DNA from: an uncultured Verrucomicrobiota bacterium
GTDB taxonomy: Bacteria > Verrucomicrobiota > Kiritimatiellia > SS1-B-03-39 > UBA6053
Length of the DNA stretch: 64,000 nt
NCBI GenBank assembly: GCA_937127435.1
Contig: CAKZLZ010000156.1
Span: 10,554 to 74,553 of the forward strand
Direction: 5' to 3'
Shown: in pieces, positions 5,590-20,939 of the stretch
Position numbering within the stretch: position 1 is the stretch's first letter
How the letters are laid out: every line of letters begins with the position of its first letter
Made by a program: the position numbers and the translations under genes
Notes under the pieces: model-generated
What the model was told of the DNA's origin: nothing
Seen by the model: the letters and a program-made list of their open reading frames with translations, nothing else
Database searches by the model: none

Positions 5590-5612
5590 CGTTCCCGTCT
5601 GTTGAGTGCAGG

Positions 5613-5641
5613 TTGACATGGTCATTTAAAATGACTATATT
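5613..5641 (+). promoter_or_regulatory. Sigma70-type promoter of the TA operon with palindromic operator in the spacer
   Basis: TTGACA (5613-5618), 17 bp, TATATT (5636-5641); spacer holds near-perfect palindrome GTCATTTAAAATGAC (5621-5635). Confidence 0.75.
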
Positions 5642-5647
5642 GAAATT

Positions 5648-5875
5648 ATGAAAACCATGGCCATTACTGAATTTAAATCGCATGCCCTGAAAGTTCTGAA
5701 TGATCTTTCGAAAGATCAGGAATCTATTGTGATCACCAAACGGGGCAAACCCATTGCGGAAGTCGTTGCCTACAAAGAAAAACCCCTTCAAATGGGGAGT
5801 TTACGTGGGACGGTGCTTTATGAGGGGGATATCATTTCTCCACTGGGCGAAGAGATGTGGGATGCATGTAAATGA
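5648..5875 (+). CDS. Phd/YefM-family antitoxin
   Basis: 75 aa; ITEFKSH...L.......ESIVITKRGKPIAEVV Phd-type N-terminus; 4-bp overlap with the PIN gene. Confidence 0.9.
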   Translation: MKTMAITEFKSHALKVLNDLSKDQESIVITKRGKPIAEVVAYKEKPLQMGSLRGTVLYEGDIISPLGEEMWDACK

Positions 5876-6270
5876 AGTATGTATTGGATACACATACTTG
5901 GATATGGTGGAATGCCAATCCTGATAAATTATCCATTGATGTAAAAGAGTTGCTGGGTAACCCAGACCGGTTTTCAGAGATCCTTTTATCGGCAATTTCT
6001 CCATGGGAATTTTGTAAACTGATTGAGAAAAAGAGATACCTTATTTCTAATCATCCCCTCGAATGGATCGATCAGGCTTTGAAAATGACTAAATTACGGC
6101 TGGTACCCTTGACGCCTGCAATCAGCTACCGGTCAACCTCTCTTCCAGGATCTTTTCACGCGGATCCGGCCGATCAAATCATTGTCGCCACAGTAATGGA
6201 AGAAAATGCCATCCTTATCACCAAAGACGGACTGATTCAAAATTACCCACACCTGCGTACCCTATGGTAA
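5872..6270 (+). CDS. PIN-domain (VapC-like) toxin
   Basis: 132 aa; YVLDTHTWIWW, SAISPWE, HADPADQIIVAT, LITKDG. Confidence 0.92.
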   Translation: MKYVLDTHTWIWWNANPDKLSIDVKELLGNPDRFSEILLSAISPWEFCKLIEKKRYLISNHPLEWIDQALKMTKLRLVPLTPAISYRSTSLPGSFHADPADQIIVATVMEENAILITKDGLIQNYPHLRTLW

Positions 6271-6292
6271 AGATCCCGAGTTCCGGATGTTA

Positions 6293-7411
6293 TTATTCCG
6301 ATACGAGGCTGCTTAACGGTTCCTGATCCAAGTGACGAACCACGGGGCGTTTTTTGGGAGAGCGGGTGGTGCTCCCCGAGCACCAAAACCCGGGATTGAG
6401 CGCGAACACCGGATGCTCCGGCGTTCCCCGTTCCGCCCGGTGTATCTGACCAATCAGAATATCCATCATGGTTTGCAACTGACTTTCCATATCCTGATTG
6501 ATCCCGGTCACATCCTCCGATCCTTCCCCCCACTGGTCCAAGGTGGCGTAGCCCAGGTCCTTCGGAAATTTGATCCCCTCCTGCAGCAGCATGCGGTATA
6601 CCTCCTGGCCCGGACTGACCACAACATCGAGACGGTTTTTATCGATCCAGGCCAGGAGTGCGTTCGCATCATATTCTTCCGGAACAAAGATCGGGAGTTC
6701 GTTCATTACCCCTCGAAGTTGTTTCCAAAGGAGGTAGGCCGCGGACCAACGGTGATGCGTGCGAAGTTCCACATCCTGCCACATGGTGAGTCCGATTCGT
6801 TTGTATCCATCCGCTTCAAGCTCTGCCAAGGTCGTTAACATTCCCCTGAAGTGGTTATGCCGGACCCCACTGATCCGGGGGACCATCAGGGTATCGGAAA
6901 ATTCCACTGCACAGAATTTATCCCATTCCACGGGCAACGTTCTCACCCCCTGATGAAACATTTCCGGATGGATCATGGGGATGATGATTCCTTCGATTCC
7001 ACGTGTCCACATGATCCGGTTGATTCTCTCCGGAGTTGTGTCGGGATTATTCAGCCAAAAGGATTCCAGTTGGTATCCCCGGCTGTCTGTGATCTCCGTA
7101 AGCTTCGAGAAAATCTTTTGTTCCACAGGGTTCCATTCCTCGGTGGGGCCGCTGCGGATAAATCCCAAGGTCCCCTGATCTTTTAACGGTCCCTTTTTGG
7201 TGCTGGACATCAGTTTGGAGAGATGCGGGTTTGGTCGATAGCCCATCTCTTTGGCCAAAAATTTTATTTTTTCTTTGGTGGTCTTGGAAATTCTCGGGTG
7301 TCCTTTCAGAGCGAGGGAAACCGTGGCCTTGGATACCCCGGCCCGGTCGGCGATTTGCTGAAGAGAAACACTTTTGCGCTTTTGCATTCTTGGATTAGAT
7401 GCCGAATTCAC
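6293..7411 (-). CDS. LacI-family transcriptional regulator
   Basis: VSLQQIADRAGVSKATVSLAL...GYRPN helix-turn-helix plus periplasmic-binding-protein-like effector domain; true start may be a few codons later (MQKRK). Confidence 0.9.
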   Translation of the reverse strand: MNSASNPRMQKRKSVSLQQIADRAGVSKATVSLALKGHPRISKTTKEKIKFLAKEMGYRPNPHLSKLMSSTKKGPLKDQGTLGFIRSGPTEEWNPVEQKIFSKLTEITDSRGYQLESFWLNNPDTTPERINRIMWTRGIEGIIIPMIHPEMFHQGVRTLPVEWDKFCAVEFSDTLMVPRISGVRHNHFRGMLTTLAELEADGYKRIGLTMWQDVELRTHHRWSAAYLLWKQLRGVMNELPIFVPEEYDANALLAWIDKNRLDVVVSPGQEVYRMLLQEGIKFPKDLGYATLDQWGEGSEDVTGINQDMESQLQTMMDILIGQIHRAERGTPEHPVFALNPGFWCSGSTTRSPKKRPVVRHLDQEPLSSLVSE

Positions 7412-7485
7412 AGGGGAGTCAACGTTAACTTAGCTCGCGGATAAAATATCTACCAAATCAATGAAAAGAGATTTAGACTGGTGAC

Positions 7486-8595
7486 ATGATGAAAATACAA
7501 CTCCTTCCCACGATCGTTCTTTCCGCTGTCTGCTTCACTTCACTCTTCGCTCAGACCAACACTGATTGGAATGGAGGGGGGGCTACTGATATTTGGTCTG
7601 ATGCCGCCAATTGGAGTGCGGGTACGCCTGATACCAATAGTGAAGTGGCTCGTTACCTCTCTTTCCCAACCATTGATATTGAGGTGGACAGCGACCACAC
7701 CATTAACAGTTACCTCGATGGTTTCGACGGGGCGGGGCAAACAACGACCTTTTCCGGCACGGGTGTGCTTACGGTTGACCGAAACCTGGCTGGCTATAGC
7801 GTGGGTATCAACAACGCAACGGGTGGTGTGGGTGGGACGTTGAAATTCAGCGGCAAGGTCACGATCGATAATTCGCTTGGTGGAGCCACTGCCGTCCAAA
7901 ACTCGAATGGCACGAACAATATTACAGAGTTTGCTGCTGGAAGCACTTTGACACTAAACACGAATTTCCAAATTAATAACAGTGGCAGTTACCTGTTTAA
8001 CGGCACACTGGCCGGCTCTGCTGATTTTATCGCCGCCTCTTCGCCCGGTATATCCTTTGGGGTTGGGCACGATAGTAGCGGTTACACGGGTAATGTAATT
8101 TATTATTCAAACGGAAAGGTGGCGATTGATGGAGGCACTGTACTCAGTAACAGCCAAAGGTTTCAAGTGAATGGCAATAACAGTGAATTGGAGTTAAACG
8201 CTGCAGACGCGATCAATGGTGCAGGTATATCCATTGCGGGAACCAATACATTCCTCCTTGATGCGAATGCGAATCAGGATGACATGGGATTTCTTAATTT
8301 AGGTGAAGGCACATTAAATCTTGATCTTGCTGCCGGAGTAACGGGTCTCTCTTTCGCTGACAGTTCTGCGTTTGACTGGACGGGCGGTACCGTAAATATT
8401 ACCGGTTTCCGCGAAGGCGTGATTAAATTCGGGAACGATGACACCGGTCTAACCGCTGGCCAACTCGACACCATTGATGACGGAATTTACAGTCTTACCG
8501 ATGAGGGGTATCTCACCATACCCGAACCCGGCACCATCCCCTTGTTTCTGATCTTCGGTTTCGGTCTGCTGTTTTCCCGCCGCCGGAAAAACTGA
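7486..8595 (+). CDS. PEP-CTERM surface protein with beta-strand-repeat passenger-like body
   Basis: Signal peptide, WNGGG....WS..ANW motif, G/N/T-rich repeats, C-terminal IPEPGT + hydrophobic stretch + RRRKN. Confidence 0.88.
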   Translation: MMKIQLLPTIVLSAVCFTSLFAQTNTDWNGGGATDIWSDAANWSAGTPDTNSEVARYLSFPTIDIEVDSDHTINSYLDGFDGAGQTTTFSGTGVLTVDRNLAGYSVGINNATGGVGGTLKFSGKVTIDNSLGGATAVQNSNGTNNITEFAAGSTLTLNTNFQINNSGSYLFNGTLAGSADFIAASSPGISFGVGHDSSGYTGNVIYYSNGKVAIDGGTVLSNSQRFQVNGNNSELELNAADAINGAGISIAGTNTFLLDANANQDDMGFLNLGEGTLNLDLAAGVTGLSFADSSAFDWTGGTVNITGFREGVIKFGNDDTGLTAGQLDTIDDGIYSLTDEGYLTIPEPGTIPLFLIFGFGLLFSRRRKN

Positions 8596-8683
8596 AACTT
8601 TTCCCCTTCTTCTTGTCCTTCGAATCTATCCCTCCTTCGGGAGGGAACGGATGAGACTTGTAATTCAACTCAGATAAATCTTT

Positions 8684-10339
8684 ATGCGTATTTTCCGATC
8701 AGCGATATTTATATCCTCAGTGCTCATAAGCCTGGCGGCTCTGGCACAACCCAACATTGTGTTCATTTTGACGGATGATGTGGGAACGGGCTGGATTCCG
8801 CCTTACGCGGAAAAACTGACGGTGGCGGATATCGAACCGGAAATTGTAGGGCAATATCAACAGACGCATGGCCATCAGGGGGCGGTCGACCTCGAAGCCC
8901 ATCTGGCGGCGGCAAAAGTGAGCATGCCCACGCTCTCCAAACTGTCCAAACAAAGTGCCGTCTTCCACCGGGCTTTTGCCACGGCTTCTCTCTGCTCCCC
9001 CAGTCGGGCGGGGTTGCTCACGGGGAGTTTTCAACAGACCTGGGGCGCTTACTGGAATAAGGATGTGGATGACCACGGAATCCCCGCCGACCGCACTTTA
9101 CTTTCCGAATCCCTTCATAAAGCCGGATACCGTTGTGGCATTGTCGGGAAATGGCATGTGGCCAAGCAGGATCCGCGAATCATGGAGAAAGCCTGGGTGG
9201 AGGAATTGGGTGAAGAGCTGCCCATCCCAAAATATTACGGAGGGAAGTGGCCGCAATTGCAGAAGGCCATGCGTGCCAATGCCTGGAAAACTTCATCCGC
9301 ACCCGGCCAGCATCCCTTGGACCGGGGATTTGACTACTACTTCGGCTACAACAGTTATGATGATCAGGATTATGGCTCCGAAACCCTTTGGGAAGGGTGG
9401 GCGCGGGTTCCCAAAAGACCGGAGGGCGAATTTCTAACTGATCTGTTTAACCGCAAAGCGGTGGAATTTATTGAAAGCTCACTGGACCGGAAAAAACCAT
9501 TCTTCCTCTATTACGCCCCTAAAACCCTTCACGGCGGCATTAAACGTCCACCGGAATCTTACGTGCAAAACTTTGATACCGGCAACAGGTTCAGTGACCT
9601 TTTCGCGGGGCACCTGTTGGCGTTGGATGACGGAATCGGAAAAATTTTACAGACCCTGGAAACCAGAAAACAGCTGGAGAACACGCTGATTATTTTTACT
9701 TCAGACAATGGATTCACCCTCTACAATGTCCCGCCCTACAATGCCCCCAACCGGGGAGGAAAAGGAAGCGGATGGCTTGGAGGATTGAATGTGCCCCTGA
9801 TCATCTGGAACCCCAAACTGATCCGGCCGGGAGAGTACAATGACATTGTCAGCCTGGCGGATCTTATGCCCACCATTCTGAATTTCGTGGGAATGGATCC
9901 GCCGTCCGGAATTGACGGAATAAGTTTGTTTCCCTATCTGATCGGGGCCAGCGACAGGCCTCCGCGGAAATCACTCGGCGCGGCGGGAATTCATTCTTCC
10001 CGCTGGTCCTATTCATATGAAACCCATGGCGAAAACAACACCAAGGATGCCATGGAAGCCCCCATGTATGCCTGGGTTCTGGAAGAAGATATGTTGTTGA
10101 TGCAGATCACAGAAACGCCTCCCGGATTGTATGAAAATTTACCCGAAGGACTTCCCGGGAGAACGCTGCTATTTGATATAGAAAGCGACCGCGCGCAGCG
10201 TGAAAACTTGGCTGAAGCGTTTCCGGAAAAGATTCCTCTCCTTCAATCCCGCGTTTCAGAATGGTTGCAACACACGGCTGAACCCCTAACATCCCAACAG
10301 GATGCATATGAGCATCTCCAACAACCGGACACCCCCTGA
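8684..10339 (+). CDS. Formylglycine-dependent (S1) sulfatase, secreted
   Basis: PNIVFILTDD, CSPSRAGLLTG (CxPxR), GKWH, RGFDYYFG, IFTSDNG; signal peptide. Confidence 0.93.
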   Translation: MRIFRSAIFISSVLISLAALAQPNIVFILTDDVGTGWIPPYAEKLTVADIEPEIVGQYQQTHGHQGAVDLEAHLAAAKVSMPTLSKLSKQSAVFHRAFATASLCSPSRAGLLTGSFQQTWGAYWNKDVDDHGIPADRTLLSESLHKAGYRCGIVGKWHVAKQDPRIMEKAWVEELGEELPIPKYYGGKWPQLQKAMRANAWKTSSAPGQHPLDRGFDYYFGYNSYDDQDYGSETLWEGWARVPKRPEGEFLTDLFNRKAVEFIESSLDRKKPFFLYYAPKTLHGGIKRPPESYVQNFDTGNRFSDLFAGHLLALDDGIGKILQTLETRKQLENTLIIFTSDNGFTLYNVPPYNAPNRGGKGSGWLGGLNVPLIIWNPKLIRPGEYNDIVSLADLMPTILNFVGMDPPSGIDGISLFPYLIGASDRPPRKSLGAAGIHSSRWSYSYETHGENNTKDAMEAPMYAWVLEEDMLLMQITETPPGLYENLPEGLPGRTLLFDIESDRAQRENLAEAFPEKIPLLQSRVSEWLQHTAEPLTSQQDAYEHLQQPDTP

Positions 10340-10344
10340 TTCCC

Positions 10345-11043
10345 ATGCATGGTTCTCAAACCCATTCCAATAAGGCCCGCCAATCCGACGCTTTCACGCT
10401 GATTGAAATGCTGGTGGTGATTGCGATTATTGCCCTGTTGGCATCACTGATTATCCCTGCGGTCACGGGAACCCTCGCAAGGGCCAAAAAAACCTCCGCC
10501 ATGAGTAATCTGCGGCAACTTGGAATCGGCGTCGTGGCCTATGCAACAGATAATAATGGCAGGTTTCCCCGGGGCGGTTTTCAGCCCTTATACTGGCATA
10601 ATGACATTTATCCTTATGTAGGAAATGATCCCTCCGTGTTCCGGGATCCGGCGGGTCATACAGAATATGGTGACCCCTGGGTACAATTTGAAGAGGATGG
10701 TGAAGATCTTCCTTTTGACTTTGGATACAATGCCCATATCAATCCTTATTCAGGCTCCGAACTGGTAAATGAAAAACCCTGGAACCAGGGCCCAAGAGAT
10801 CTCTCGGATATTATGGGGTATCCGGTGCCTCTCATTCACACCATCGTAAACCAAAACAACTTTGTTTTCTGGACCTTCTCACTGCCTGAGAACTCCGGGA
10901 ACCGGCAGGCCTACGACCCGCGCCATTCGGGCAGAGGACTCGTGCTCTGGACCGACAGCAGTATCTCCTCGCCCACCTATGCGGAATACATGCAGATGGC
11001 CGAAGACCGGGGTGGGCCTTCAGCTTTTGTCACGGGCCAATAA
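10345..11043 (+). CDS. Prepilin-type N-terminal cleavage/methylation domain protein (pseudopilin-like)
   Basis: AFTLIEMLVVIAIIALLASLIIPAV...ARAKKTSAMSNLRQLG; C-terminal RH.G...LW.D motif of the PVC-expanded class. Confidence 0.88.
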   Translation: MHGSQTHSNKARQSDAFTLIEMLVVIAIIALLASLIIPAVTGTLARAKKTSAMSNLRQLGIGVVAYATDNNGRFPRGGFQPLYWHNDIYPYVGNDPSVFRDPAGHTEYGDPWVQFEEDGEDLPFDFGYNAHINPYSGSELVNEKPWNQGPRDLSDIMGYPVPLIHTIVNQNNFVFWTFSLPENSGNRQAYDPRHSGRGLVLWTDSSISSPTYAEYMQMAEDRGGPSAFVTGQ

Positions 11044-11047
11044 TAAA

Positions 11048-12733
11048 ATGAATCAACCTGGAATGTTTTACCTGAGAGTCTTCAGATTTTTAAAACGGCC
11101 TGCCTTATTTACCGGTTTGGCTTTGCTCGGTGGATGTATGCCGACGGTCAACCAAAACTCAAAACTCGAATTGAAATCAGAACAGAAAGCTGAACCCAAA
11201 CCAGAATATAACGCCTCGCGGGAACTTCCGAATCTCATCAGGGCGGGCATTGAAAGTGGACAAAAAATCATCCGCATTCCGGAAGGGCGTTATCACGTTC
11301 TTCCGAGTGAAGGAATTCATTTGGAGCTCCGGGATCTCCAGGGGTTCACGCTGGATATGCGCGGGGTGGAAATGATCTGCACGGAAAGCACCCTTGCCCT
11401 GCGGATCGAAAATTGTGAAGGGCTCACCATCCGCGGTCTGACCGTCGATTATGATCCGCTTCCTTTCACCCAAGGGGAGCTGATCGAAATTTCTCAAGAC
11501 CGTAAGACGCACCTGATCAAGCTGGCGGAAGGATTTCCACCGGCGGAAGCGGTGATAGCCTCCAAATACATTCTTTTTTCCCCCGACGGCGATCTGCGAT
11601 ACGGAAGCTATTATCAATTTGAAACAGAGGGGCTTCCCGATAACCATCTGCGGATCAGCGGTCTGCATCCCCGGAAAGACGGCGGCGAACAGACAGGCGA
11701 TCTGATTACCATCTCTGCCCAGCATCTGCAGGGACGTTTCAGACCGCATGCCATTCACTTGGAACGATCAGTAGGCACGGTGTTGGAGGATATCACCCTT
11801 TATGCTTCTCCCACTTTCGGGTTTTTTGAAACCCACTGTTCGGGATCCGTGTACCGGAGGTGTATCGTGGACCGTAAAGACAAGCGTCTCCGCTCTCTGA
11901 ACGCCGACGGATTTCACAGCAAGTTCGCCGAAGTGGGGCCGTTACTGGAAGAATGCCTGGCCTATTGGCAGGGGGATGACGGCATCAATATTTGCGGTGC
12001 GTATCATTTGGTCATCGGTTCAGAGGGGGATCGGCTGCGGGTATTGGCAAAACGTGAAATGGATATCCTGCCCGGGGATCCCGTGCAATTGGTGCAGCTC
12101 GGCGGGCGCCCCTTACCCAATGCCAAAGTCCTCTCCGTTACCGAGACAGGACCTGCCACGGAAGCGCAACTCAACAGCCTTGAGGGCGTTCCTGTCCTGC
12201 AAAATGTGAAGCAGCTTCTCACGACGGCGTATGAAATTCAGATCGACACCCCGGTAGAAATGGAACCCGGTGGGGTCATCGGATCTCTCAACCGAATGGG
12301 AAATGGCTTTGTGATCCGGGGCTGTGAATTTGGATTTATTCGTTCCCGGGGGATTCTGGTAAAAGCCAGTAACGGTTTGATCGAAGACAATCTCCTGGAC
12401 CATTGCGGGATGCAGGGCATCAAGGTGGCCCCCGAGTATAATTGGTTGGAGTCTGGATTCAGTGAAAACGTCACCATAAGAAACAACCGCATCATCCAAC
12501 CGGGAAAAGAGGGCATTCTGGTGGACAGCATCGGGCCTCACCCCATGCACCGGAACCTCGAGATTTTAAACAATACCATTACCACCCAAAACCTTCCTGC
12601 GGTGCGTATCCAAGGTGTAAGCGGGGGAAGCTTTCTGGAAAACGAGATCCGTGGGTTCTCCGCCGGACAAAATGAGTCCGCCGTTTCCGTGAGTGATTCC
12701 TCTCACTTCCGCCGGGACCAACAGAATCCCTAA
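11048..12733 (+). CDS. Right-handed beta-helix protein, GH110-like (alpha-galactosidase-like), probable lipoprotein
   Basis: TVDYDPLPFTQGELI, NADGFH, QGDDGINICG, IRSRGILVKASNGLIEDN; lipobox-like LLGGC; start at ATG 11048, not the 10862 ORF start inside the previous gene. Confidence 0.7.
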   Translation: MNQPGMFYLRVFRFLKRPALFTGLALLGGCMPTVNQNSKLELKSEQKAEPKPEYNASRELPNLIRAGIESGQKIIRIPEGRYHVLPSEGIHLELRDLQGFTLDMRGVEMICTESTLALRIENCEGLTIRGLTVDYDPLPFTQGELIEISQDRKTHLIKLAEGFPPAEAVIASKYILFSPDGDLRYGSYYQFETEGLPDNHLRISGLHPRKDGGEQTGDLITISAQHLQGRFRPHAIHLERSVGTVLEDITLYASPTFGFFETHCSGSVYRRCIVDRKDKRLRSLNADGFHSKFAEVGPLLEECLAYWQGDDGINICGAYHLVIGSEGDRLRVLAKREMDILPGDPVQLVQLGGRPLPNAKVLSVTETGPATEAQLNSLEGVPVLQNVKQLLTTAYEIQIDTPVEMEPGGVIGSLNRMGNGFVIRGCEFGFIRSRGILVKASNGLIEDNLLDHCGMQGIKVAPEYNWLESGFSENVTIRNNRIIQPGKEGILVDSIGPHPMHRNLEILNNTITTQNLPAVRIQGVSGGSFLENEIRGFSAGQNESAVSVSDSSHFRRDQQNP

Positions 12734-12749
12734 TTTTTTCACCCCCGCT

Positions 12750-14411
12750 ATGAAGAACAGTATGCTTGAACAGACGACCTTGGCCCCGACGCCGGAATCC
12801 TCAGCGCTTTTGACGTTGAAACCTGAAAACGGCAAAACGCTCCTCCTTCCCAAAGGTGTGCACCATTTATTTCCGGGGGACTTTCCTTTCCGCCACCTGC
12901 ACATTTCCAACAATGATGACGGGATTAAACATATTGTGTTTGATCTTTCCGGCATGGAAAATGTCACCATCGACGGAAACGGTGCCGAACTGATCCTGCA
13001 TGGTCATCTGATTCCTTTCTATATGCGGGATGCGAAGAACATCACCTTGAAGAATCTCACCATCGATTGGGAGCATCCCTTTTGTGCCCAGGGGGAAGTG
13101 GTGGACGCGGGTCCGGGTTGGGTGGAGATAAAACTCGAAGAAGCATATGACCTCCGGGTTTGCGATGGACGTCTACAGGCGCACACGCCTGATTGGATGT
13201 ATCCAGTGGGTATTCATAATCTGAATTATATCGACCCGGTCCGCGGGGAGCACGCATATCAGTCCACCGACGAATATGGGATGTTCACCCATGAGGACTA
13301 TACCGCGATTCAAAAGGAGGCGCGGGTCCTCCGGCTGGAGTCGGATGTGATGCGGAACAAACCCCAAGTCGGTCAGGTCGCGGTCTTCCATTTTGACGGC
13401 CGGACTTCTCCGGTGGTTTCGGCACAAAACTGCGAAGGCATCCGCATCGAAAACAGCACAATTTTTCATGCGGGGGCGATTGCAACCATCTTCGAAGGAT
13501 GCCGCGATGTTTATTTAGATCATCTTGAAGTCAGGCGCCGGGGGAAGCGATGGTTTTCTTCGTTGAATGACGCAACCCACTTTGTGGAGTGCAAAGGGAA
13601 TATATTCCTGACTAACTGTCTTTTTGAATTTCAAAATGATGATGCCACCAATATCCACGGGATCTACAGGTCTGTCGATGCCGCATTGAACGAAGATACC
13701 CTGCTTCTCCGCCTCATGCATTTTCAACAGTTGGGGGTTGATACCATTGGCCCCGGAGACAGCCTGGCCCTCTGCGATTGCAATTCTTTGAAGACCCTGG
13801 CCATCCGCAGGGTGTCCAAAGTTTTGCCTCAGGATCACCAGTGCACGGCCTATCAGTTTTCGGAAAAGCTTCCGGATCTGGACTGGAACCATGTAGTGGT
13901 CATGCGTTATGAAAGCGACGTGCACGTGCTGATTCAGGGCAATACCATCCGCAACAACCGTGCGCGGGGCATTCTGATCACCAGCATGGGGAAAGTGGAA
14001 ATCAGGGACAACTTTTTTCATACGCCGGGACCTGCCATTCAGATTGAATACGGGGTTACCGGAAAGTGGTTTGAATCCGGTCCGGTTGAAGATGTGGAGA
14101 TCACGGACAATATCTTTGATCAGTGTAACTTCGGGTGTTGGGGGAATGCTTTGTTTTTGCTTGGCCCCATGCATGGCGACCCCACATCGGAAAACATCCG
14201 GATTCATGGAAACCGCATTCATCACATCTACAAACCGCTGGTCCGCATCTCCAATGTGGATGGCTTTGTGTTTTCCGACAATGAGATCGTGCCCGGTACC
14301 GATTATCCGCATTGGGAAAGTTCTCCCGACATGCTGGTCCTTGGCCCCGGGGTCACAAACGAGGTCCTTTCGGATTTTACGTCAAACCGCGAAGCCGGTG
14401 ACACAGTTTGA
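12750..14411 (+). CDS. GH110-family alpha-1,3-galactosidase-like beta-helix protein
   Basis: HISNNDDG.KHIVFDL....NVTIDGNGAELILHG, IDWEHPFCAQGEV, NDATHF, QNDDATNIHG, NNRARGILI, GKWFESGPVEDV; start at ATG 12750. Confidence 0.82.
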   Translation: MKNSMLEQTTLAPTPESSALLTLKPENGKTLLLPKGVHHLFPGDFPFRHLHISNNDDGIKHIVFDLSGMENVTIDGNGAELILHGHLIPFYMRDAKNITLKNLTIDWEHPFCAQGEVVDAGPGWVEIKLEEAYDLRVCDGRLQAHTPDWMYPVGIHNLNYIDPVRGEHAYQSTDEYGMFTHEDYTAIQKEARVLRLESDVMRNKPQVGQVAVFHFDGRTSPVVSAQNCEGIRIENSTIFHAGAIATIFEGCRDVYLDHLEVRRRGKRWFSSLNDATHFVECKGNIFLTNCLFEFQNDDATNIHGIYRSVDAALNEDTLLLRLMHFQQLGVDTIGPGDSLALCDCNSLKTLAIRRVSKVLPQDHQCTAYQFSEKLPDLDWNHVVVMRYESDVHVLIQGNTIRNNRARGILITSMGKVEIRDNFFHTPGPAIQIEYGVTGKWFESGPVEDVEITDNIFDQCNFGCWGNALFLLGPMHGDPTSENIRIHGNRIHHIYKPLVRISNVDGFVFSDNEIVPGTDYPHWESSPDMLVLGPGVTNEVLSDFTSNREAGDTV

Positions 14412-14487
14412 TGCCGAACTCAAAAGGCTCGGTACAGACATGATTTCCACCATGTGGGAAGAAGAGGGGGATCGGACTGGCCGGTCC
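14374..14487 (+). pseudogene. Displaced internal fragment of a peptide deformylase gene
   Basis: 14407-14487 matches def 15349-15428 at 75/80 plus a 1-nt insertion; upstream codons read ILRQTAKPVTQFD vs resident VLREKAAPITNFD. Confidence 0.9.
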
Positions 14488-14526
14488 CAATCATTGTGGA
14501 TGTGGATGCGATCAGTTTGATGTGAA
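14483..14526 (+). pseudogene. Displaced copy of the priA 3' end, including the stop codon
   Basis: 42/44 identical to 5546-5589; encodes IIVDVDAISLM-stop. Confidence 0.93.
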
Positions 14527-14532
14527 ATAAAA

Positions 14533-15108
14533 TCAATTATGGGGATCGTATAAATCCGAACCCAGCCAACTGAGGTCGCTCAGCGCCTGTTGTGCCAAGA
14601 CGCGCGTTTTATTTTTCCACTCGACATTCAACTCCAAATAATTCCGCTCCATTTGAGCACCTAATCTCCGTTTGGGCTTGTTGTATAAAGCCTCATAGCG
14701 ATCATAATAGACGTGCCGTATATCTTCGATTTGAATCATGGCCTCAATGAAGGAAACCACATGCTGTGCATCTTCAGTGGTGAGGATATCCTGTTTGTGC
14801 ATTTCCTGCCCGTCTTTCCATGCCTGCTTTAATTCGCCTTTTTTATATAGCCTTTTGATGACTTGGTTTGAGGGATCGTCCTCGACAATATCACTGGTTA
14901 ACACTTCAAAGATATCTTCCAAATTACGGACGTATCTATTTTTGTTCGGAACGGGTACCCGCGTAGGTACAGGGGTTGGAACGGTTGGTATTTGAATGAC
15001 CGGCGTGGGAACCGGTGCCGGTAGAGGGGCGACAGATTTCGAAGGCCAGAACTTGAAAATGATGAAAGCGGTAAGGACGGTGATGATAAATTGGAAAAAA
15101 ATTTTCAT
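14533..15108 (-). CDS. Hypothetical membrane-anchored protein with Pro-rich linker
   Basis: 191 aa; hydrophobic N-terminus, PLPAPVPTPVIQIPTVPTPVPT linker; AT-richer than neighbours. Confidence 0.65.
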   Translation of the reverse strand: MKIFFQFIITVLTAFIIFKFWPSKSVAPLPAPVPTPVIQIPTVPTPVPTRVPVPNKNRYVRNLEDIFEVLTSDIVEDDPSNQVIKRLYKKGELKQAWKDGQEMHKQDILTTEDAQHVVSFIEAMIQIEDIRHVYYDRYEALYNKPKRRLGAQMERNYLELNVEWKNKTRVLAQQALSDLSWLGSDLYDPHN

Positions 15109-15282
15109 GAGCTGATTCCGATTCGATGGAAAGCAGGAAGCCTAACCCATTAGATACAAAGAATAAACGGGATATAAAGAATATATACAAATGGAAATGC
15201 GGAATGTTGGGTTCTTTACAGTGCTGAAGCTGGTTGAACACTTCTTTTTGACATGAGGAAAAGTTCAGGTTAGAGGTTTTCT

Positions 15283-15825
15283 ATGATTTATCCTCTTTGT
15301 TATTTTGGAAATTCGGTGCTTCGCGAAAAAGCTGCGCCGATTACGAATTTTGATGCCGAACTCGAAAAGCTCGGTAAAGACATGATTTCCACTATGCGGG
15401 AAGAAGAGGGGATCGGACTGGCCGGTCCGCAAATTGGGAAGTCCCTGCGAATTTTTACCATGGAAGTTCCGGTGGATATGGACGAAGATGAAAACGGCCA
15501 ACCGCTTAATGCGGGATTGGAAAGTCCGCTGGTGGTGGTGAATCCGGAAATTGAAGTTGTGGGGGACGTCGAGGAGGAAATGGAGGAGGGGTGTCTCTCT
15601 ATTCCCGAAGTTCGCGGAAAAGTGATTCGTCCTTTTGCCATCAAATTGAGGTATCAGAATGTGAAAGGCGAAAGCAAGGAACTCGAACTTCAGGGCTTGG
15701 CCGCCCGCTGTGTGCAGCATGAAACGGATCATTTGAACGGGGTGTTGTTTATCGACTATTTAAGTTCAGTCAAAAAAATGTCCATCAAAGGCAAGCTTAA
15801 GAGAATTAAGCAAAATTATGGTTAA
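15283..15825 (+). CDS. def: Peptide deformylase
   Basis: GIGLAGPQIG, EGCLSIP, QHETDHLNGVLFID motifs. Confidence 0.97.
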   Translation: MIYPLCYFGNSVLREKAAPITNFDAELEKLGKDMISTMREEEGIGLAGPQIGKSLRIFTMEVPVDMDEDENGQPLNAGLESPLVVVNPEIEVVGDVEEEMEEGCLSIPEVRGKVIRPFAIKLRYQNVKGESKELELQGLAARCVQHETDHLNGVLFIDYLSSVKKMSIKGKLKRIKQNYG

Positions 15826-15830
15826 GTGCC

Positions 15831-15956
15831 ATTTAGGGGAGATGATTTAGGGCAGGATGATTTAGGGCAGGATAATTTAGGGCAGGATAATTTAAGGCAG
15901 GATGATTTAGGGCAGGATGATTTAGGGGAGCATAATTTAGGGCAGGATAATTTTTG
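15831..15956. repeat. 15-bp tandem repeat, 8 units plus a degenerate ninth
   Basis: Unit ATTTAGGGCAGGAT(G/A) starting at 15831, 15845, 15860, 15875, 15890, 15905, 15920, 15935; two related inverted units at 16019-16045. Confidence 0.9.
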
Positions 15957-16116
15957 AGGGGAGTCAAAGAAGAATGTTTCCCTGGCCGTGGCTCGCGCCA
16001 CACGCGGGTAGGCAGATCAATCATCTTGCCCAAAATCATCTTGCCTCATGTTGTGGAATATCATTTTGCCTCTTAGAAAGCTTGCTATTCAAATGTAGTC
16101 CTTTCATACTTTTTTT

Positions 16117-17718
16117 ATGATTGGGCAAGAGGATTTTTTCAGTGACGGGTCAGACGAAGGCAACAACTTAAGTTTGGCGAGGATCCATTCTGCCGCGGTA
16201 CTGGGGGTGGATGCGATTCCGGTGGAGGTGGAGGTCAATGTCAGCCCCACCCAGGAAAACAAATTTCAACCCAACATCGTGGGACTGCCGGATGCGGCAG
16301 TAAAAGAAAGTCTGGACCGGGTAAGCACCGCCCTGGCCAACAGCGGATTGGAAACGCCTTTTGCGATGAGATGGCTCATCAACCTCGCGCCTGCGGATCT
16401 CCGCAAGCAGGGGCCCAGTTTTGATTTACCGATTGCTTTGGCGACCTTGTCCGCATTGGAAGAGCTGACGCAGGAGCAACTCAAGGGAGCGATGGCGGTG
16501 GGGGAGTTGGCACTGTCCGGCAATTTACGTCCGGTGCGCGGGGTGTTGCCTATTGCGCTGCGGGCAAAGGAGATGGGAATTCAAAGGCTGTTTGTGCCTG
16601 AGGAAAACGGCGAAGAGGCGGCGGTGGTGGAGGGGTTAAAGGTGTATCCGGTGAAACATCTGCGGGAGGTTGTGGATTTCCTGAAAGGGGATTTAGAACT
16701 GCAAGCGCTGTCGCTGGATCTGGACAAGATGTTCGATCAGTATCAACAATACCCACTCGATTTTGCGGAAGTGAAAGGACAGGAAACTGCGCGGCGGGCT
16801 TTGGAGGTTTCGGTTGCGGGAGGTCATAATTTGTTGATGATCGGCTCTCCGGGCACGGGTAAAAGCATGATCGCTAAACGCATTCCCACCATACTGCCTC
16901 CGCTCAATTTGGCGGAATCATTGGAGGCAACCAAAATACATTCGATTGCCGGGACCCTGCCCGCACATCAGGCCCTGGTGGCACAACGGGCCTTTCGTGC
17001 GCCTCATCACACCGTTTCCGACGCGGGACTTTTAGGCGGAGGAACCTATCCCATGCCCGGAGAAGTAAGTCTGGCCCATCACGGGGTATTGTTTCTCGAT
17101 GAACTTCCTGAATTTGCCCGCAACGTATTGGAAGTGATGCGTCAACCTTTAGAGGACGGGGTGGTCAATATCAGTCGGGCGGCGGCCTCGGTTACCTTTC
17201 CCTGCAGTTGCATGCTCGTCGCAGCAATGAACCCGTGTCCCTGCGGTTATTATGGTGATCCCAAACGTAAATGCCATTGCACCCCCCAGCAGATTCAGCG
17301 CTACCGCAACCGGGTGAGTGGACCGTTGTTGGACCGTATTGACATTCAGATTGATGTACCGGCAGTCCGTTACGAAGAATTGACTTCACTCGAAAAAGGA
17401 GAAAGCTCCGCCGCCATTCGGGAGCGGGTCATCCGCGCCAGAAAAGTGCAGGAAGAACGCTTTGCCGACAATGACCGCATTCACTGCAACGCCAATATGG
17501 GCACCAAAGAACTGAATGAAGTTTGCCGCCTGGATGAGCAGGGGCATCAAATGTTGCGCATGGCCATGGACGAGTTAAACCTTTCCGCCCGCGCCTATGA
17601 CCGCATCCTCAAAGTCTCCAGAACCCTCGCCGACCTGGAGGGTGCAGAAGACATTCAACCCCACCATCTCGCCGAGGCCATCCAGTACCGGAGTTTAGAT
17701 CGGCAGGGGTGGACGTAA
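16117..17718 (+). CDS. comM: YifB/ComM-family Mg-chelatase-like AAA+ ATPase
   Basis: [93 protein letters not shown]. Confidence 0.93.
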
Positions 17719-17870
17719 CGCAGCCTTTCAGGCTGAAGGGCAGGGGCTTTCCAGCCTTTTCTTCTCTTAGCGGTAAATAATGGGGAAAAAATGCGTCTAA
17801 GAGCCTTTTAAGCTCTAAAAATCTTCCTAAGTTTTTGGCCGACAACCGAAACCTGTGGCCAGCCCCCGCT
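17541..17870 (+). repeat. comM 3' end plus about 150 bp downstream; left copy of a diverged direct repeat
   Basis: Aligns to 19525-19821, which has small deletions including one that removes the stop region. Confidence 0.92.
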
Positions 17871-17873
17871 GTC

Positions 17874-19388
17874 CTAAAGTTCGAATTCGACATCCTCATC
17901 TTCTGGTGGGGTGGCCCCGCCGGGTTGCAGATTGGGTTGGGTAATGTTTTCGGCCTGGGTGGTGGGCAGATAGCGGTAGGTCACCATCAGGGCCAATGCG
18001 CTGAGGCTTGTGTCCAACACCAGTCCCTGTTCAGGGGACTCTCTGGAAAAATTATTCCAGTGACCATCGTCCGCCTGATTTTTCACCAGCGCTTCTACCA
18101 TCTTCGGGTAGAATTTTCTGAAATTCGACCCGTTCCGGTTTTCCTGAAAAAAGGCCTGCACGGCGTAATACCAAAACATCAGTTCTCCCCCGTACTCATC
18201 ACTTCCGATCCTGCTGACACCCCATTCCGGCAGCCAGTCCTGTTTGGTGTGACGTTCCATGTATTTTAGAATTTCACGTGCCTCTTTCCGGTCACCGTTT
18301 CCGGTAAGGTACATGCCCAACAGGCCGGCGGCGGACAGAATTTCTCTTCGGGAGGAAGCCTTGGGTGAGGTTTCAATCGAAAGGCGGTAGCCGAAACCCC
18401 GTCCCAAATCATCTTTCATCGATCCCAGCAGCATCCCCTCCATGGCCCGTTGCTTATACACATTCAGTTTCGGATGATCCGGGAGGGCGATGCTTGCCGC
18501 TTTCAAAGCTTGAACATGCCAGGCATCCACCGAAACGTCATGGGTGTCCGATTTTTCATATTTATATTCATAACCGCCTCTGGGATGCTGAGATTCAATC
18601 ATCACCTTAACTGCCCGTTCCAAGGGAGCGGTCAACAGGGGGTTTTGCGTCATAGTGGAAGATTCGGCAAGGGCATAGGTGGCCATGGCATGGGCATAAA
18701 CCACATGTCGGCCCACCGGCTGAAGCAATCCGCGGGAATCCTGATTTTCAACCAGAAACCTGATGCCATTGGCAACGGTTGAACCGAATTCCCGTGATGC
18801 GGGAGTTTCTCCGTGTGCCAAAAATGCCAGCAATGCGAGGCCTGTGTGTCCCGAATCACCTTTTTTTCCCTCTGCTCCCCACGATCCGTTCTCATGCTGA
18901 TTCTCTTTCAACCATCTGAGGGCTTTGAGTACTGCAGGTTCTGAAACGCCGCCCAGTCCCCGTCCGTATTGTTTTAGCGCCTTTGCGCGTCCGACGGAGG
19001 TTCGACCGGCCAATAAATTTGTCATATGTACCGGACTGGATATATCCGACATCAGGTCCGAGAGGCTGCTGACATCGGTTTGCACAGATTCTACAACCGG
19101 TTCCGGATCTTGTTCCATGTCCGTATCGATGGGTGTATCAAAGGCGAGGTCGCTGAAATTATCTATATCATCAGGATCGACGACCATCTCGGGTTCGATT
19201 TCCTCTTCGATTTCATCAATAAGTTCTTTGTCCATGGCTTCGATGACAATTACCGTAGTGTTATCCCGTTCCTGCTTGTCCTGAAAAGTAATGAAGGTGA
19301 TCAGGAGCATGATCAAAATGCCATTGATGATCAGGGAAACCAAAACACTCGAGGTGTGGGCCATTCGAAGGTATCGTTGTACGTTCAT
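17874..19388 (-). CDS. Prenyltransferase/squalene-oxidase-repeat (alpha/alpha-toroid) protein, membrane anchored
   Basis: 504 aa; N-terminal TM, acidic linker, ALRWLKENQHENGSW, TGLALLAFLAHG, GIRFLVENQ, NQADDGHW repeats. Confidence 0.8.
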   Translation of the reverse strand: MNVQRYLRMAHTSSVLVSLIINGILIMLLITFITFQDKQERDNTTVIVIEAMDKELIDEIEEEIEPEMVVDPDDIDNFSDLAFDTPIDTDMEQDPEPVVESVQTDVSSLSDLMSDISSPVHMTNLLAGRTSVGRAKALKQYGRGLGGVSEPAVLKALRWLKENQHENGSWGAEGKKGDSGHTGLALLAFLAHGETPASREFGSTVANGIRFLVENQDSRGLLQPVGRHVVYAHAMATYALAESSTMTQNPLLTAPLERAVKVMIESQHPRGGYEYKYEKSDTHDVSVDAWHVQALKAASIALPDHPKLNVYKQRAMEGMLLGSMKDDLGRGFGYRLSIETSPKASSRREILSAAGLLGMYLTGNGDRKEAREILKYMERHTKQDWLPEWGVSRIGSDEYGGELMFWYYAVQAFFQENRNGSNFRKFYPKMVEALVKNQADDGHWNNFSRESPEQGLVLDTSLSALALMVTYRYLPTTQAENITQPNLQPGGATPPEDEDVEFEL

Positions 19389-19524
19389 AGAAGTATTTGT
19401 TTTTGCATTTGTGTTTTTGTGTCCGGAATTTGTGCTGAAGTGAGCGTACGCAATTTACATGCTAATGTTTAGAATTTTCCCAATAAATCGGCACGAATGG
19501 TTAAAACGTACCTGAAATAAACGT

Positions 19525-19821
19525 GGGGCATCAAATGCTCAGCATGGATGAATTCAACCTCTCCGCCCGCACCTACGACCAGATCCTCAAAGTTTCCCGT
19601 ACCACCGCCGACCTGGATGGGCCAGAAGATATTCAACCAAACCATCTCGCCGAAGTTGTCCCATACCGCAGCCTTTCAGGCTGAAGGGGAGGGGCTTTCC
19701 AGCCTTTTTCTTATCTTAGCGATAAATAATGGGGTGAAAAAATGCGTCTAAGAACCTTTTAAGCTCTGAAAATCCTCCTAAGTTGTTGTCCGACAACCGA
19801 AAGCTGTGGCCAGCCTCCGCT
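19525..19821 (+). pseudogene. Displaced, diverged copy of the comM 3' end and downstream region
   Basis: Reads MDEFNLSARTYDQILKVSRTTADLDGPEDIQPNHLAEVVPYR vs resident [42 protein letters not shown]. Confidence 0.92.
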
Positions 19822-19939
19822 TTAGCGGGTCCGTTAATTTGAAAAGCGAAAACCTCTGTTGGAAGCCGCACAGGGGTCAAGCAGTACACTCTATCATTCT
19901 GATATAATATATGACCCTGTGTTCTAGCATCCCTCCTTT

Positions 19940-20299
19940 TCATTCTTTTTTATTTTTAAACCGGGGATGTTCGTTCACATGGACATACATTTTTAAATGG
20001 GTATCCAACAGAAAGACCTTGTCTCCTTCACTTTCATATAAACCCAGAATGAAAGCCCCATTGGGGGTATGGATGGTGAAAGAACGCATTCCATTCTCTA
20101 ATGTCAGACCCCATGCACAACTGGGTGGCATCAGCCTTCTACGTGAAAATCGTTGCGGGACGGCTTGCATTTTTTGAAGTGGTGCCAAAATTTTTTCTTC
20201 GACGACCTTCTGGGCGCGCTCATCGGCGGGGGGCTGCTCATCGGCGGGAATGAAGAGTGGAAGCAGGCATAGTAAGAGGAGGGGGGAGTACTTTTTCAT
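19940..20299 (-). CDS. Small secreted hypothetical protein
   Basis: MKKYSPLLLLCLLPLFIPA signal peptide at ATG 20299. Confidence 0.6.
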   Translation of the reverse strand: MKKYSPLLLLCLLPLFIPADEQPPADERAQKVVEEKILAPLQKMQAVPQRFSRRRLMPPSCAWGLTLENGMRSFTIHTPNGAFILGLYESEGDKVFLLDTHLKMYVHVNEHPRFKNKKE

Positions 20300-20939
20300 G
20301 AGGGAATTTTCCTTGAGGGTTGGTTTTTGGGTTGAAATAAAAGTGGATGATTCCTTCGGCAATCAAAAGATTTAGAAGGGTGCTTGCCCATGTGCTGAGA
20401 GAATAATTCAAGGTATATGAAAATCCGGCGTAGTATCCGCTTAGGTACAGCAATCGAAAAGTAAGGGCACTGAGGGCCACTGCATAACTCCGTACCATCC
20501 AACGGGTATGTGAGCGTATATGACATCGGCATAATTCATAAAGGCCGAGGAGGGTCACCGAGGTCATCCAGCATCCGGTAAGAAAAAAGCCTAATCGCCC
20601 TATAAAACCTCCGTGTGCATGTAAAGAGAGCCACAACCCTGTAGGCAACATCACTCCCAGTGTGCTAAAAGCATAAATGCTCCCCATGACGGCATGCGTG
20701 ATTCGTTTTTTAAGCAGAGGGATAAAGAGGAAAGGGCCTGTGAACAGGCAAAGCATGCCAGCCAAAACATGGGCAATCAGAACTTGCCTCCAGCCGGGAG
20801 GCGCGTCCTGAATCCGCTCCCGGTAGAACACAACCGTTCGAGGGTCAGATAAATATCCCCGGCTGTTCCAAAATAACAAACCCGTCAAAGTGAGAACAAA
20901 GGTCCAAAAGAGAAGAGGGAGTAAATGTTTTGCATGCAT
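20238..20939 (-). CDS. DUF2306-like predicted membrane protein
   Basis: Multiple TM helices; HVLAG...L..GP, HIRSHTRWMVRSYAVALSALTFR. Confidence 0.7.
   Translation of the reverse strand: MHAKHLLPLLFWTFVLTLTGLLFWNSRGYLSDPRTVVFYRERIQDAPPGWRQVLIAHVLAGMLCLFTGPFLFIPLLKKRITHAVMGSIYAFSTLGVMLPTGLWLSLHAHGGFIGRLGFFLTGCWMTSVTLLGLYELCRCHIRSHTRWMVRSYAVALSALTFRLLYLSGYYAGFSYTLNYSLSTWASTLLNLLIAEGIIHFYFNPKTNPQGKFPHEKVLPPPLTMPASTLHSRR

Follow-up and report, generated by a model that had tools for sequence, protein, structure and literature searches.

A single gene between direct repeats of the comM 3′ end in a Kiritimatiellota bacterium, probably the fixed scar of an old duplicative rearrangement

Just downstream of comM in a marine Kiritimatiellota bacterium, a single gene is enclosed by two diverged direct copies of the comM 3′ end, which raises the question of whether the gene is the cargo of an element that can still leave or the product of a past rearrangement. 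The original prediction favoured a homologous single-crossover product that could loop out again by RecA. The analysis of the window, that is, the whole 64-kb stretch of DNA under study, points to an old duplicative rearrangement that left a fixed scar, and not to an active mobile element, with a probability of roughly 0.75. The features of the locus, in window coordinates, are these:

16117..17718, plus strand: comM, encoding an intact 533-aa YifB-family Mg-chelatase-like AAA+ ATPase (Pfam, TIGR00368)
17541..17870, plus strand: left repeat, made of the last 178 nt of comM (17541-17718) and a 152-nt spacer, 'element E' (17719-17870)
17742..17769, plus strand: terminator-like hairpin and T-run directly after the comM stop (consensus scan, pattern match only)
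17874..19388, minus strand: sandwiched gene, 504-aa protein (Pfam SQHop_cyclase_C, 29.1 bits, cut-off 26.1)
19389..19510, minus strand: upstream region native to the sandwiched gene, which moved along with the open reading frame (alignment with the upstream region of the ortholog in B1221)
19511..19524, no strand: segment that links the moved unit to the right repeat (alignment with the B1221 region and sister strains)
19525..19666, plus strand: pseudo-coding part of the right repeat, a 5′-truncated comM fragment with 6-nt and 30-nt deletions and about 12 codon replacements
19667..19821, plus strand: spacer part of the right repeat (element E copy 2)

The segment 17541-17870 is directly repeated at 19525-19821, giving flanking direct repeats of 297-330 bp. 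A single gapped BLAST alignment joins the two copies over 333 columns (76.9% identity, E = 6e-73), and diagnostic sub-motifs of the repeat occur exactly twice in the window, against 0.00 occurrences expected by chance. ComM carries the ChlI, Mg_chelatase and Mg_chelatase_C domains of Pfam, scores 624 bits against the YifB/ComM model TIGR00368 (cut-off 362) and is 93% identical to its counterpart in Kiritimatiellaeota bacterium B1221, the closest genome to that of the window's host. The alignment, the sub-motif counts and the profile score thus bear out the direct repeat around a single gene, with comM intact, that had been claimed for this DNA. Only the minus-strand gene lies between the repeats, and its stop codon (17874-17876) does adjoin the left one, at a distance of 3 nt and not of the 4 bp first given. 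The repeat boundary falls inside comM and shows no recognisable core site. The terminator-like hairpin behind comM has a counterpart in the right copy (19686-19710); in the consensus scan, hairpins of this kind were no more numerous than in shuffled sequence.

An assembly artefact was ruled out by an independently assembled metagenome contig (L081, ERZ928327), which is 99.994% identical over 17.6 kb and has the same architecture, and by contigs of sister strains that span both junctions. Both junctions are common to these marine sister strains, whose identity in the gene is about 95%, but the lesions differ. The marine runs coded X2-X6 contain no fewer than three variants of the locus. They also have an additional 31-36 nt between the spacer and the stop codon, which matched neither the right flank of the window nor the region downstream of comM in B1221. 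In strains X3 and X6 the junction takes a variant form, which reads ...CTCTATAAACG up to the joint and AGGGACATCC... beyond it. No empty-site or circle junction was found in metagenome contigs from six runs; contigs are blind to rare forms, and none of these runs contains the exact strain. Nor was an empty-site allele with the right flank of the window found, the sister-strain contigs having no coverage of window positions 19835-20400.

The 504-aa product of the sandwiched gene has an N-terminal membrane helix, an acidic linker and an alpha/alpha-toroid repeat domain similar to those of prenyltransferases and squalene cyclases, and it belongs to an expanded Kiritimatiellota family. The cyclase-like match is confined to a QW-repeat stretch of about 75 residues. 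In the PDB, only the QW-repeat region of squalene-hopene cyclases was matched (best E = 1.6e-5), and the scores against TIGR01787 (32.8 bits, cut-off 322.7) and TIGR01507 (24.5, cut-off 431) stay far below the thresholds. Judged from its sequence, the protein is not a bona fide squalene or terpene cyclase.

Comparison with B1221 reveals where such a gene resides in a relative. The B1221 ortholog, P0122 (89% protein identity, 83% DNA identity), occupies a different locus, on a contig other than that of comM, where its neighbours are a pseudopilin-like gene and a SIS/CBS gene. The sandwiched gene is absent from the comM locus of B1221, where a GH113 gene fills the slot. Because the B1221 ortholog lies elsewhere and none of the orthologs at 80, 75 and 66% identity adjoins comM, the comM-adjacent position is derived. 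The insertion is lineage-specific, in line with the original prediction. The slot downstream of comM is different in every Kiritimatiellota lineage examined. The divergence of the cargo is typical of the genome (83% against 80% nucleotide identity between the window and B1221). Homology to the B1221 ortholog reaches precisely to the stop codon on one side and stops some 120-135 nt before the ATG on the other, so the moved unit consisted of the open reading frame and its own 5′ region.

These comparisons show the course of events. It took place in the common ancestor of the window strain and its marine relatives, once the B1221 lineage had branched off: a single chromosomal gene, moved or copied from elsewhere, came to lie directly behind comM, on the strand opposite to it. 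With the open reading frame went about 120-135 nt of its own 5′ region, and some 300-330 bp of the target, namely the comM 3′ end and the downstream spacer, were left on both sides. The left copy remained within the functional comM, and the right copy lost its function and is decaying, with replacements at invariant residues and strain-specific indels. The spacer copies have probably been partly homogenised by gene conversion.

The decay is visible in the coding part of the repeat, where 31 of 147 aligned nt differ (78.9% identity). Across the stretch of 42 codons that runs from M-D-E to Y-R, 11 codon differences are synonymous and 10 non-synonymous, close to the approximate ten and ten noted earlier, and the 49 codons compared contain 12 of each. 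That the copy stays in frame over these codons, and that a deletion of about 30 nt has removed the comM stop region, was confirmed: the 30-nt deletion is followed by a frame that ends with YRSLSG and a stop at 19682-19684. A further in-frame deletion of 6 nt has removed codons M-A; in sister strain X5 the right copy retains these 6 nt and has a 1-nt deletion. Polarisation with outgroups assigned 13 changes to the right copy. Two of them lie in the boundary codon; of the other 11, nine replace amino acids that do not vary among ComM relatives down to 70% identity. The left copy has eight specific changes, nearly all synonymous, and at the approximately 80% nucleotide identity to the outgroups the polarisation of synonymous sites is unreliable. 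Both copies have window-lineage states in common. The replacements at invariant residues and the shared states show that the right copy is a decaying duplicate of the same lineage, a pseudo-fragment that has lost its function. A foreign or otherwise different functional comM allele was ruled out by the polarisation. The in-frame comM fragment of 53 codons at 19523-19684 should accordingly not be called a gene in annotation.

The non-coding part of the repeat behaves differently. The duplication of about 150 bp of non-coding DNA, as described before, is real: 155 nt can be aligned with 11 mismatches and three gap columns (92.9% identity), so that divergence is significantly lower in the spacer than in the coding part (11/155 against 31/147, or 7% against 21%; Fisher p = 4e-4). 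The spacer is also conserved downstream of comM in B1221 (L082, 2358-2475), and is therefore ancestral to the comM locus. Although the duplication is older than the strain split, the two window copies differ from each other at about 10 sites and each differs from the spacer of a sister strain at about 15. The copies give the tree ((L,R),sister), and they cluster by genome at 11 sites against one and one. In sister strain X5 the right copy is much closer to the left copy, and recognisable spacer is apparently missing from it. These patterns, seen in about 100 nt of sequence from Logan contigs of low coverage, indicate that the spacer copies were probably partly homogenised by gene conversion, with a tract ending at the 30-nt deletion. 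Might the similarity have been kept by selection, with element E acting as a small RNA, a regulatory site or a recombination site? The lower divergence of the spacer, a 73-nt core that is 89% identical between the two spacer copies of B1221, and a spacer hairpin that tolerates C-to-U changes only when read on the plus strand would agree with such a role. It is nevertheless very unlikely: copies group by genome and not by position, sister strains about 95% identical in the gene differ by 10-13% in the spacer, and X5 seems to do without the right-hand spacer. Folding z-scores of -1.35 to +0.65 denote no unusual stability, only one of 25 pairs is compensatory (consensus folding of both strands gave 1-2), and no Rfam family was matched at gathering thresholds over the whole window. 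No tRNA or tmRNA was found in the window either; with these searches and the near-zero z-scores, a structured RNA or tRNA target was ruled out. A dispersed repeat or MITE was rejected as well, the spacer motifs occurring only twice in the window. An nhmmer search of all loci returned only the known copies, and pattern scans of genome and metagenome collections only the two of B1221.

An important consequence concerns the mobility of the gene. The spacer tree and the right copy of X5 seem to support homologous interaction between the repeats, so that this part of the original prediction stands. Excision by RecA at present is, on the sequence, unlikely, because the longest uninterrupted identity between the repeats is 22 nt, located within the spacer and not at the boundary. 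With an overall identity of 77% and no empty-site or circle junction in the metagenome contigs, the suggestion that the gene could loop out again was not sustained. Nothing in the structure appears to encode or recruit a recombinase, and it is probably no longer realistically excisable.

Known mobile elements leave other traces. Pfam scans of neighbouring genes (about 45 kb scanned, window 68-42194) found no transposase or integrase, and none of 18 inverted pairs forms terminal inverted repeats. The locus lacks the transposition genes of Tn6022/AbaR elements (tnsABC/tniABC-like), their interruption of comM and their 5-bp target-site duplication. Site-specific integrative elements would bring an integrase and a short att core, and here neither is seen and the cargo is the ortholog of a chromosomal B1221 gene. 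For an integron cassette, too, the integrase is missing, the repeat holds 178 nt of comM coding sequence and the folding of the spacer is ordinary. Elements do enter comM elsewhere. In the relative B12222 it is split by an island, next to a tRNA-Met 3′-half remnant and defence genes (the 5′ part of this comM was not recovered). Records of Acinetobacter and Evtepia also show a split comM, the 546-aa integrase of a temperate phage has a ComM fragment as its neighbour, and in B1221 a 7-kb block has one of the two spacer copies on either side, with a toxin-antitoxin pair and an IS256-type transposase after it. The B12222, phage and B1221 cases lend some substance to the idea that the window holds the remnant of a site-specific element or island that targeted comM and supplied a replacement 3′ end, the repeats being attL and attR and the integrase lost or acting in trans. 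This has little probability, since no integrase lies in or near the structure, no element DNA is left besides an ordinary chromosomal ortholog at genome-typical divergence, the spacer occurs only twice in the B1221 genome and was found nowhere else, and the boundary inside comM has no core site.

The comM structure has company. About 3 kb from it, a def fragment (14394-14487) is followed by a 191-aa gene and then by intact def, and in a third case a DUF5685 gene is flanked by 170-nt repeats, the last 11 codons and the spacer lying upstream of the intact gene. Two more cases of one gene between repeats in the same window point to a generic process at work in this genome, one that is not specific to comM. 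Similar scars were found at comM in three other phyla (loci L078, L021 and L058), with an integrase between the copies in none of them; L078 has a 5′-fragment duplication on one side of comM and a 3′-fragment duplication on the other. Of the examples outside the window, that in Prevotellamassilia is fresh, with repeats 97-98% identical on both sides of comM, and those in two other phyla are older. The link that had been drawn to comM as a hotspot found no statistical support. Among the first 84 loci outside the window, comM accounted for three of about nine repeat-bearing loci (p = 0.066, or 0.017 counting the window), and with 41 further loci, many of them close relatives, for three of about 13 against 10.7% of the sequence (binomial p ~0.16), the non-comM cases including tandem paralogs. 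The same architecture is also seen at def, 3 kb away.

The scar could have arisen in several ways that fit the data: by integration of DNA with a comM 3′ homology, either of the Campbell type or through homology-facilitated illegitimate recombination, by a tandem duplication with a later deletion, or by template switching during replication. No model explains how the gene was first joined to a comM fragment or to the spacer. A circle carrying the gene and comM 3′ homology could have integrated by a single RecA crossover, or linear DNA by homology-facilitated illegitimate recombination after uptake, with loop-out possible thereafter. The topology is exactly that of an insertion-duplication with a 3′-terminal fragment, the repeats show signs of homologous interaction, and the two duplications at L078 are what circles with terminal fragments would give. 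The original prediction was right about the topology, but a single crossover is one of several origins that would give it, and it requires a circle in which two illegitimate joints had already linked the gene with a comM fragment. With a right copy that is no foreign allele, at most 22 nt of unbroken identity and the circle and empty-site joints unseen, this origin can be held only tentatively. An equally tentative place belongs to a tandem duplication running from the comM 3′ end through a gene already beside comM in the ancestor, after which the second gene copy was deleted. Tandem duplications with subsequent remodelling are the commonest bacterial rearrangements, and the DUF5685 case resembles such a remnant. 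Three events are required, though, including an unexplained earlier translocation, and the deletion must have stopped no more than about 35 nt from where spacer and gene meet. Searches by tblastn and sensitive blastn for traces of a second gene copy found none to the right of the right repeat or in the rest of the window, although a clean deletion would leave none, and no relative with two full copies was seen among the contigs examined.

Template switching in one step would yield the whole architecture from a single event: the nascent strand would have abandoned its template where the comM spacer ends, used the native locus of the gene as template instead, and resumed 330 nt upstream of the point where it had left. 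A terminator region rich in hairpins ends at this exit point, and the unmatched filler of 31-36 nt at the left junction of the sister strains is typical of illegitimate joints. It is nonetheless improbable, and kilobase-scale events of this type seem to be poorly documented in bacteria. A more speculative proposal, to which a similarly low probability attaches, is that of integrase-free 'homology cassettes', in which the portable homology accompanying a gene would be the end piece of a conserved host gene (comM or def), and one homologous crossover would suffice for integration, for instance after natural transformation. The intact host gene would be regenerated, a truncated copy left behind, and the cassette passed on for as long as the repeats stay similar. 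Such cassettes would unify the three structures of the window, the Prevotellamassilia example and the older cases in two other phyla.

Whichever origin applies, the fixed scar is a well-documented example of the relocation of a single gene in a bacterial genome without mobile-element machinery, in the poorly studied Kiritimatiellota lineage. It also documents the fate of the by-products, a pseudo-fragment and a duplicated spacer that then underwent decay, strain-specific indels and probable gene conversion. Homology cassettes moving between strains, if true, would amount to recombinase-free gene mobility tied to natural transformation, which the present data do not establish.

Among known systems, the Tn7-like transposons of the Tn6022/AbaR type and the prophages and islands at comM have only the target gene in common with the window. 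Here comM is intact, transposition and integrase genes are absent, a single housekeeping-type gene forms the cargo, and the repeat is about 300 bp long in place of 5 bp or a short core site. The minimal mobile elements of Neisseria are single-gene cassettes with conserved genes on both sides, and transformation with homologous recombination allows them to be swapped. Like the sandwiched gene, they are single genes without mobility functions in a variable slot beside a conserved gene; unlike it, they are not known to be flanked by duplicated target sequence. Remnants of tandem duplications share with the window a truncated pseudo-copy of a gene end, in direct orientation, 1-2 kb from the intact gene. 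The DUF5685 case fits this pattern well, whereas the duplicated comM segment flanks a different gene and shows no trace of a second copy. Insertion-duplication of the Campbell type, as with suicide plasmids that carry a terminal gene fragment, and homology-facilitated illegitimate recombination in transformation and conjugation are treated in PMC3240628. The insert in the window differs from such integrations in that it is a gene native to the chromosome and comes without any vector or foreign DNA; no circle or donor is known for it, and its repeats, now 77% identical, are probably inert for crossover. The likeness lies in the order of the parts, that is, an intact target, an insert and then a 5′-truncated direct copy of the target's 3′ end, so that one complete and one truncated copy flank the insert, and in the fact that no recombinase gene is needed and the repeats may later recombine by homology.

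Sequence comparison within the window revealed two direct repeats, which lie on either side of a single gene and align with gaps over 333 columns at 76.9% identity (E = 6e-73). The features concerned are the following.

16117-17718: intact comM/yifB (Pfam ChlI, Mg_chelatase and Mg_chelatase_C; TIGR00368, 624 bits)
17541-17870: left repeat, made up of the last 178 nt of comM and 152 nt of downstream spacer
17874-19388, minus strand: the sole gene between the copies
19525-19821: right repeat

The right copy keeps the reading frame for about 50 codons, and its lesions are an in-frame 6-nt deletion and a 30-nt deletion that takes out the stop region, after which the spacer resumes. Over 49 codons, 12 synonymous and 12 non-synonymous differences separate the copies. 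A metagenome contig (ERZ928327) has the identical layout, with 99.994% identity across 17.6 kb, which together with the alignment confirms that the repeats flank one gene beside an intact comM. The original prediction had estimated about 10 codon changes of each kind over 42 codons, where 11 synonymous and 10 non-synonymous were counted, and it had correctly described the deletion of about 30 bp in the stop region; the stop codon of the gene does lie close to the left repeat, at a distance of 3 nt and not 4 bp. The whole structure is best read, with a probability of roughly 0.75, as the fixed scar of a duplicative rearrangement and not as an active element.

Protein searches assigned the window to Kiritimatiellota, with 'Kiritimatiellaeota bacterium B1221' as the nearest genome (identity 93% for ComM and 89% for the sandwiched protein). 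When the differences between the repeats were polarised against B1221 and an 87%-identity lineage, 13 were specific to the right copy, two of them in the boundary codon. Nine of the remaining 11 replace residues that do not vary among 23 ComM relatives (L to F, A to T, R to Q, L to T, AIQ to VVP), whereas the eight differences specific to the left copy are nearly all synonymous. Because the GGG, AAC and GAC codons, which are states of the window lineage, are common to both copies against the outgroups, and because invariant residues have been replaced, the right copy is a decaying duplicate of its own lineage's comM end. The same polarisation excludes that it represents another functional comM allele.

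The sandwiched protein belongs to a large paralogous family within Kiritimatiellota. It consists of an N-terminal membrane helix, an acidic linker and a domain matching only the QW-repeat stretch of squalene-hopene cyclases, slightly over the Pfam cut-off and ten-fold under the NCBIfam cyclase cut-offs. A cyclase identity was dropped on these grounds, and the protein is treated as a putative membrane-anchored alpha/alpha-toroid repeat protein.

The upstream synteny priA-def-comM is kept in relatives, and the gene downstream of comM is different in each lineage examined. In B1221, a GH113 glycosidase occupies this slot; the gene orthologous to the sandwiched one sits on a different contig, with a pseudopilin-like gene on one side and SIS/CBS-BacA genes on the other. 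Other orthologs, with 80%, 75% and 66% identity, have neighbourhoods that are different again, none with comM. Judged from these neighbourhoods, the position of the sandwiched gene next to comM is derived. The DNA of the B1221 ortholog is 83% identical to window 17881-19489, a genome-typical value (comM 80%), and in fine alignments homology ends precisely with the stop codon on one side and runs out about 120-135 nt before the ATG on the other. Since the orthologs lie away from comM, the divergence is genome-typical and the boundaries are gene-sized, a native gene was relocated or copied together with its own 5′ region; it did not come in from afar. Further upstream, the window carries about 9 kb between priA and def (5589-15282), with a LacI regulator, a 369-aa protein, a sulfatase, a pseudopilin-like N_methyl protein and two beta-helix proteins; in a lineage with 80% ComM identity (loci L149 and L150) priA adjoins def.

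At least two sister variants, about 95% identical in the gene, are present among the Logan contigs of marine metagenomes (one in runs X3, X4 and X6, the other in X5). Their order is comM 3′ end, spacer, 31-36 extra nt, gene, the same right junction and the beginning of the comM-like fragment. The extra nucleotides matched neither the right flank of the window nor the corresponding downstream region of B1221, and look like junction filler. In X5, the right copy retains the 6 nt lost in the window and has a 1-nt deletion, and the left copy has 10-nt and 36-nt deletions. As the junction is common to the sister variants but the lesions are strain-specific, the event is older than their divergence; it is younger than the split from B1221. 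The sister contigs all leave window 19835-20400 uncovered, so the right flank differs from strain to strain.

The spacer is also kept downstream of comM in B1221, where a second copy without comM remnant lies in direct orientation 7 kb further on; by pattern scan, the genome collection has no copies besides these two, and the metagenomes have none at all. The two spacer copies of the window differ at 11 of 155 sites, compared with 31 of 147 in the pseudo-coding part (Fisher p = 4e-4). Selection on an RNA is not supported, as no Rfam family matched, folding z-scores ranged from -1.35 to +0.65 and covariation was negligible. About 10 sites distinguish the two window copies, and about 15 distinguish each of them from the left-position spacer of one sister strain; this sister spacer agrees with both equally (4:4). 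Among the copies of the window and B1221, 11 sites group by genome, against 1 and 1 otherwise. Because the duplication is older than the strain split and yet the spacer copies cluster within each genome, gene conversion inside each genome is indicated. On the little sequence available, conversion would fit the spacer similarity better than RNA selection, and its tract probably stops at the 30-nt deletion.

The B1221 spacer copies (locus L082, 2358-2475 and 9308-9445) enclose about 6.9 kb encoding GH113, PEP-CTERM-type proteins, a LacI-like regulator and a 907-aa TPR protein, followed by a BrnT/CopG toxin-antitoxin pair and an IS256-family transposase. This block may represent an insertion-duplication at the same place that is both larger and older. 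The spacer between def and comM holds its own repeats: 8.3 tandem copies of the 15-nt unit ATTTAGGGCAGGATA at window 15831-15953 and inverted partial copies about 70 nt downstream of the array (16019-16046). In B1221 (L082 1-624), the expanded motif forms higher-order arrays (54 nt and 39 nt) that face opposite ways.

The genes scanned (window 68-42194) include no integrase, transposase or relaxase; the window has no tRNA, and the repeat search gave no terminal inverted repeats. Of the origins considered, a decayed site-specific element ranks lowest in likelihood. The copies share no uninterrupted identical stretch longer than 22 nt. Efficient RecA recombination in E. coli usually takes roughly 25-30 nt, so excision by crossover is now unlikely. 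Contigs from six metagenome runs, none of them listed as holding this strain, showed neither an empty site nor a circle joint, though contigs cannot reveal rare forms. The RecA loop-out formerly proposed is thus improbable at present.

Any candidate origin has to include two illegitimate joints, one at 17870/17874 and one at 19524/19525. Campbell-type or homology-facilitated integration would yield the topology directly and agrees with the evidence of homologous interaction, but it requires a precursor in which the gene and the comM fragment were already linked, and is a tentative candidate. Tandem duplication followed by deletion, which is just as tentative, invokes common kinds of event, but the remnant of a second copy was searched for and is absent. 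Replication template switching, where a single step would suffice, is improbable. The original prediction of a single-crossover product is thus partly supported: the observation and the insertion-duplication topology stand, and present-day RecA excision is unlikely. A foreign functional allele and a special role of comM are not supported.

Two further genes in the window lie between repeats.

14394-14487: piece of the def 5′ region with a frameshift, matching 15336-15428 at 88% identity and lying about 940 nt upstream of the intact gene
14533-15108, minus strand: 191-aa gene without Pfam match, between the fragment and def
15283-15825: intact def
37304-37471 and 38647-38816: 170-nt direct repeat, 94% identity, around a DUF5685 gene
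37620-38681: DUF5685 gene, the only one flanked by this repeat

The upstream beta-helix ORF (12693-14411) now ends inside the def fragment. The left 170-nt copy corresponds to the last 11 codons (Cys-rich CDCDV(Y/C)CCDCG, then stop) and about 135 nt of spacer of a DUF5685-type gene, and by its sequence the pair looks like the remnant of a tandem duplication. Both cases point to a general process of duplication in this genome that works without a recombinase.

Interrupted or duplicated comM genes were also found elsewhere.

L097 (Kiritimatiellota bacterium B12222, CP120722.1 877280-897807), about 9500-10528: comM remnant, a 175-aa C-terminal fragment from residue 373
L078 (Prevotellamassilia timonensis), 5857-5979 and 7990-8112: 5′-fragment repeat upstream of comM, with two small lipoprotein-like genes between
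L078, 8889-9571 and 11386-11751: 3′-fragment repeat downstream of comM, with an AAA_14/DUF4143 ATPase gene between

In B12222, comM is cut beside a block of defence-type genes (DNA methylase, BrxR/WYL, PycTM, cpYpsA), with a tRNA-Met 3′-half remnant immediately before the fragment; the 5′ part was not located. Split comM genes occur in phage and island records of Acinetobacter and Evtepia. The temperate Acetoanaerobium phage ANDSL2_ph1 (PP197248.1 15550-17710, locus L152), sequenced from culture supernatant, has a 546-aa integrase gene whose end overlaps a ComM-like fragment (residues 214-376); this suggests a comM-targeting attachment region. A tblastn screen of comM loci in other genomes yielded three with the architecture of the window, none with an integrase: L078, L021 (cargo of two genes) and L058 (an RHH-PIN pair). 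The L078 repeats are 97-98% identical, both events there being recent, and the 3′ fragment has lost 310 nt internally at a microhomology of 4 nt. In a control of 125 non-window loci, about 10 had dispersed direct repeats elsewhere, against 3 at comM, which makes up 10.7% of the sequence (p ~0.16); this argues against comM being a hotspot for such duplications. Overall, the structure in the window is an ordinary sort of rearrangement by-product, seen here in unusually fine detail.
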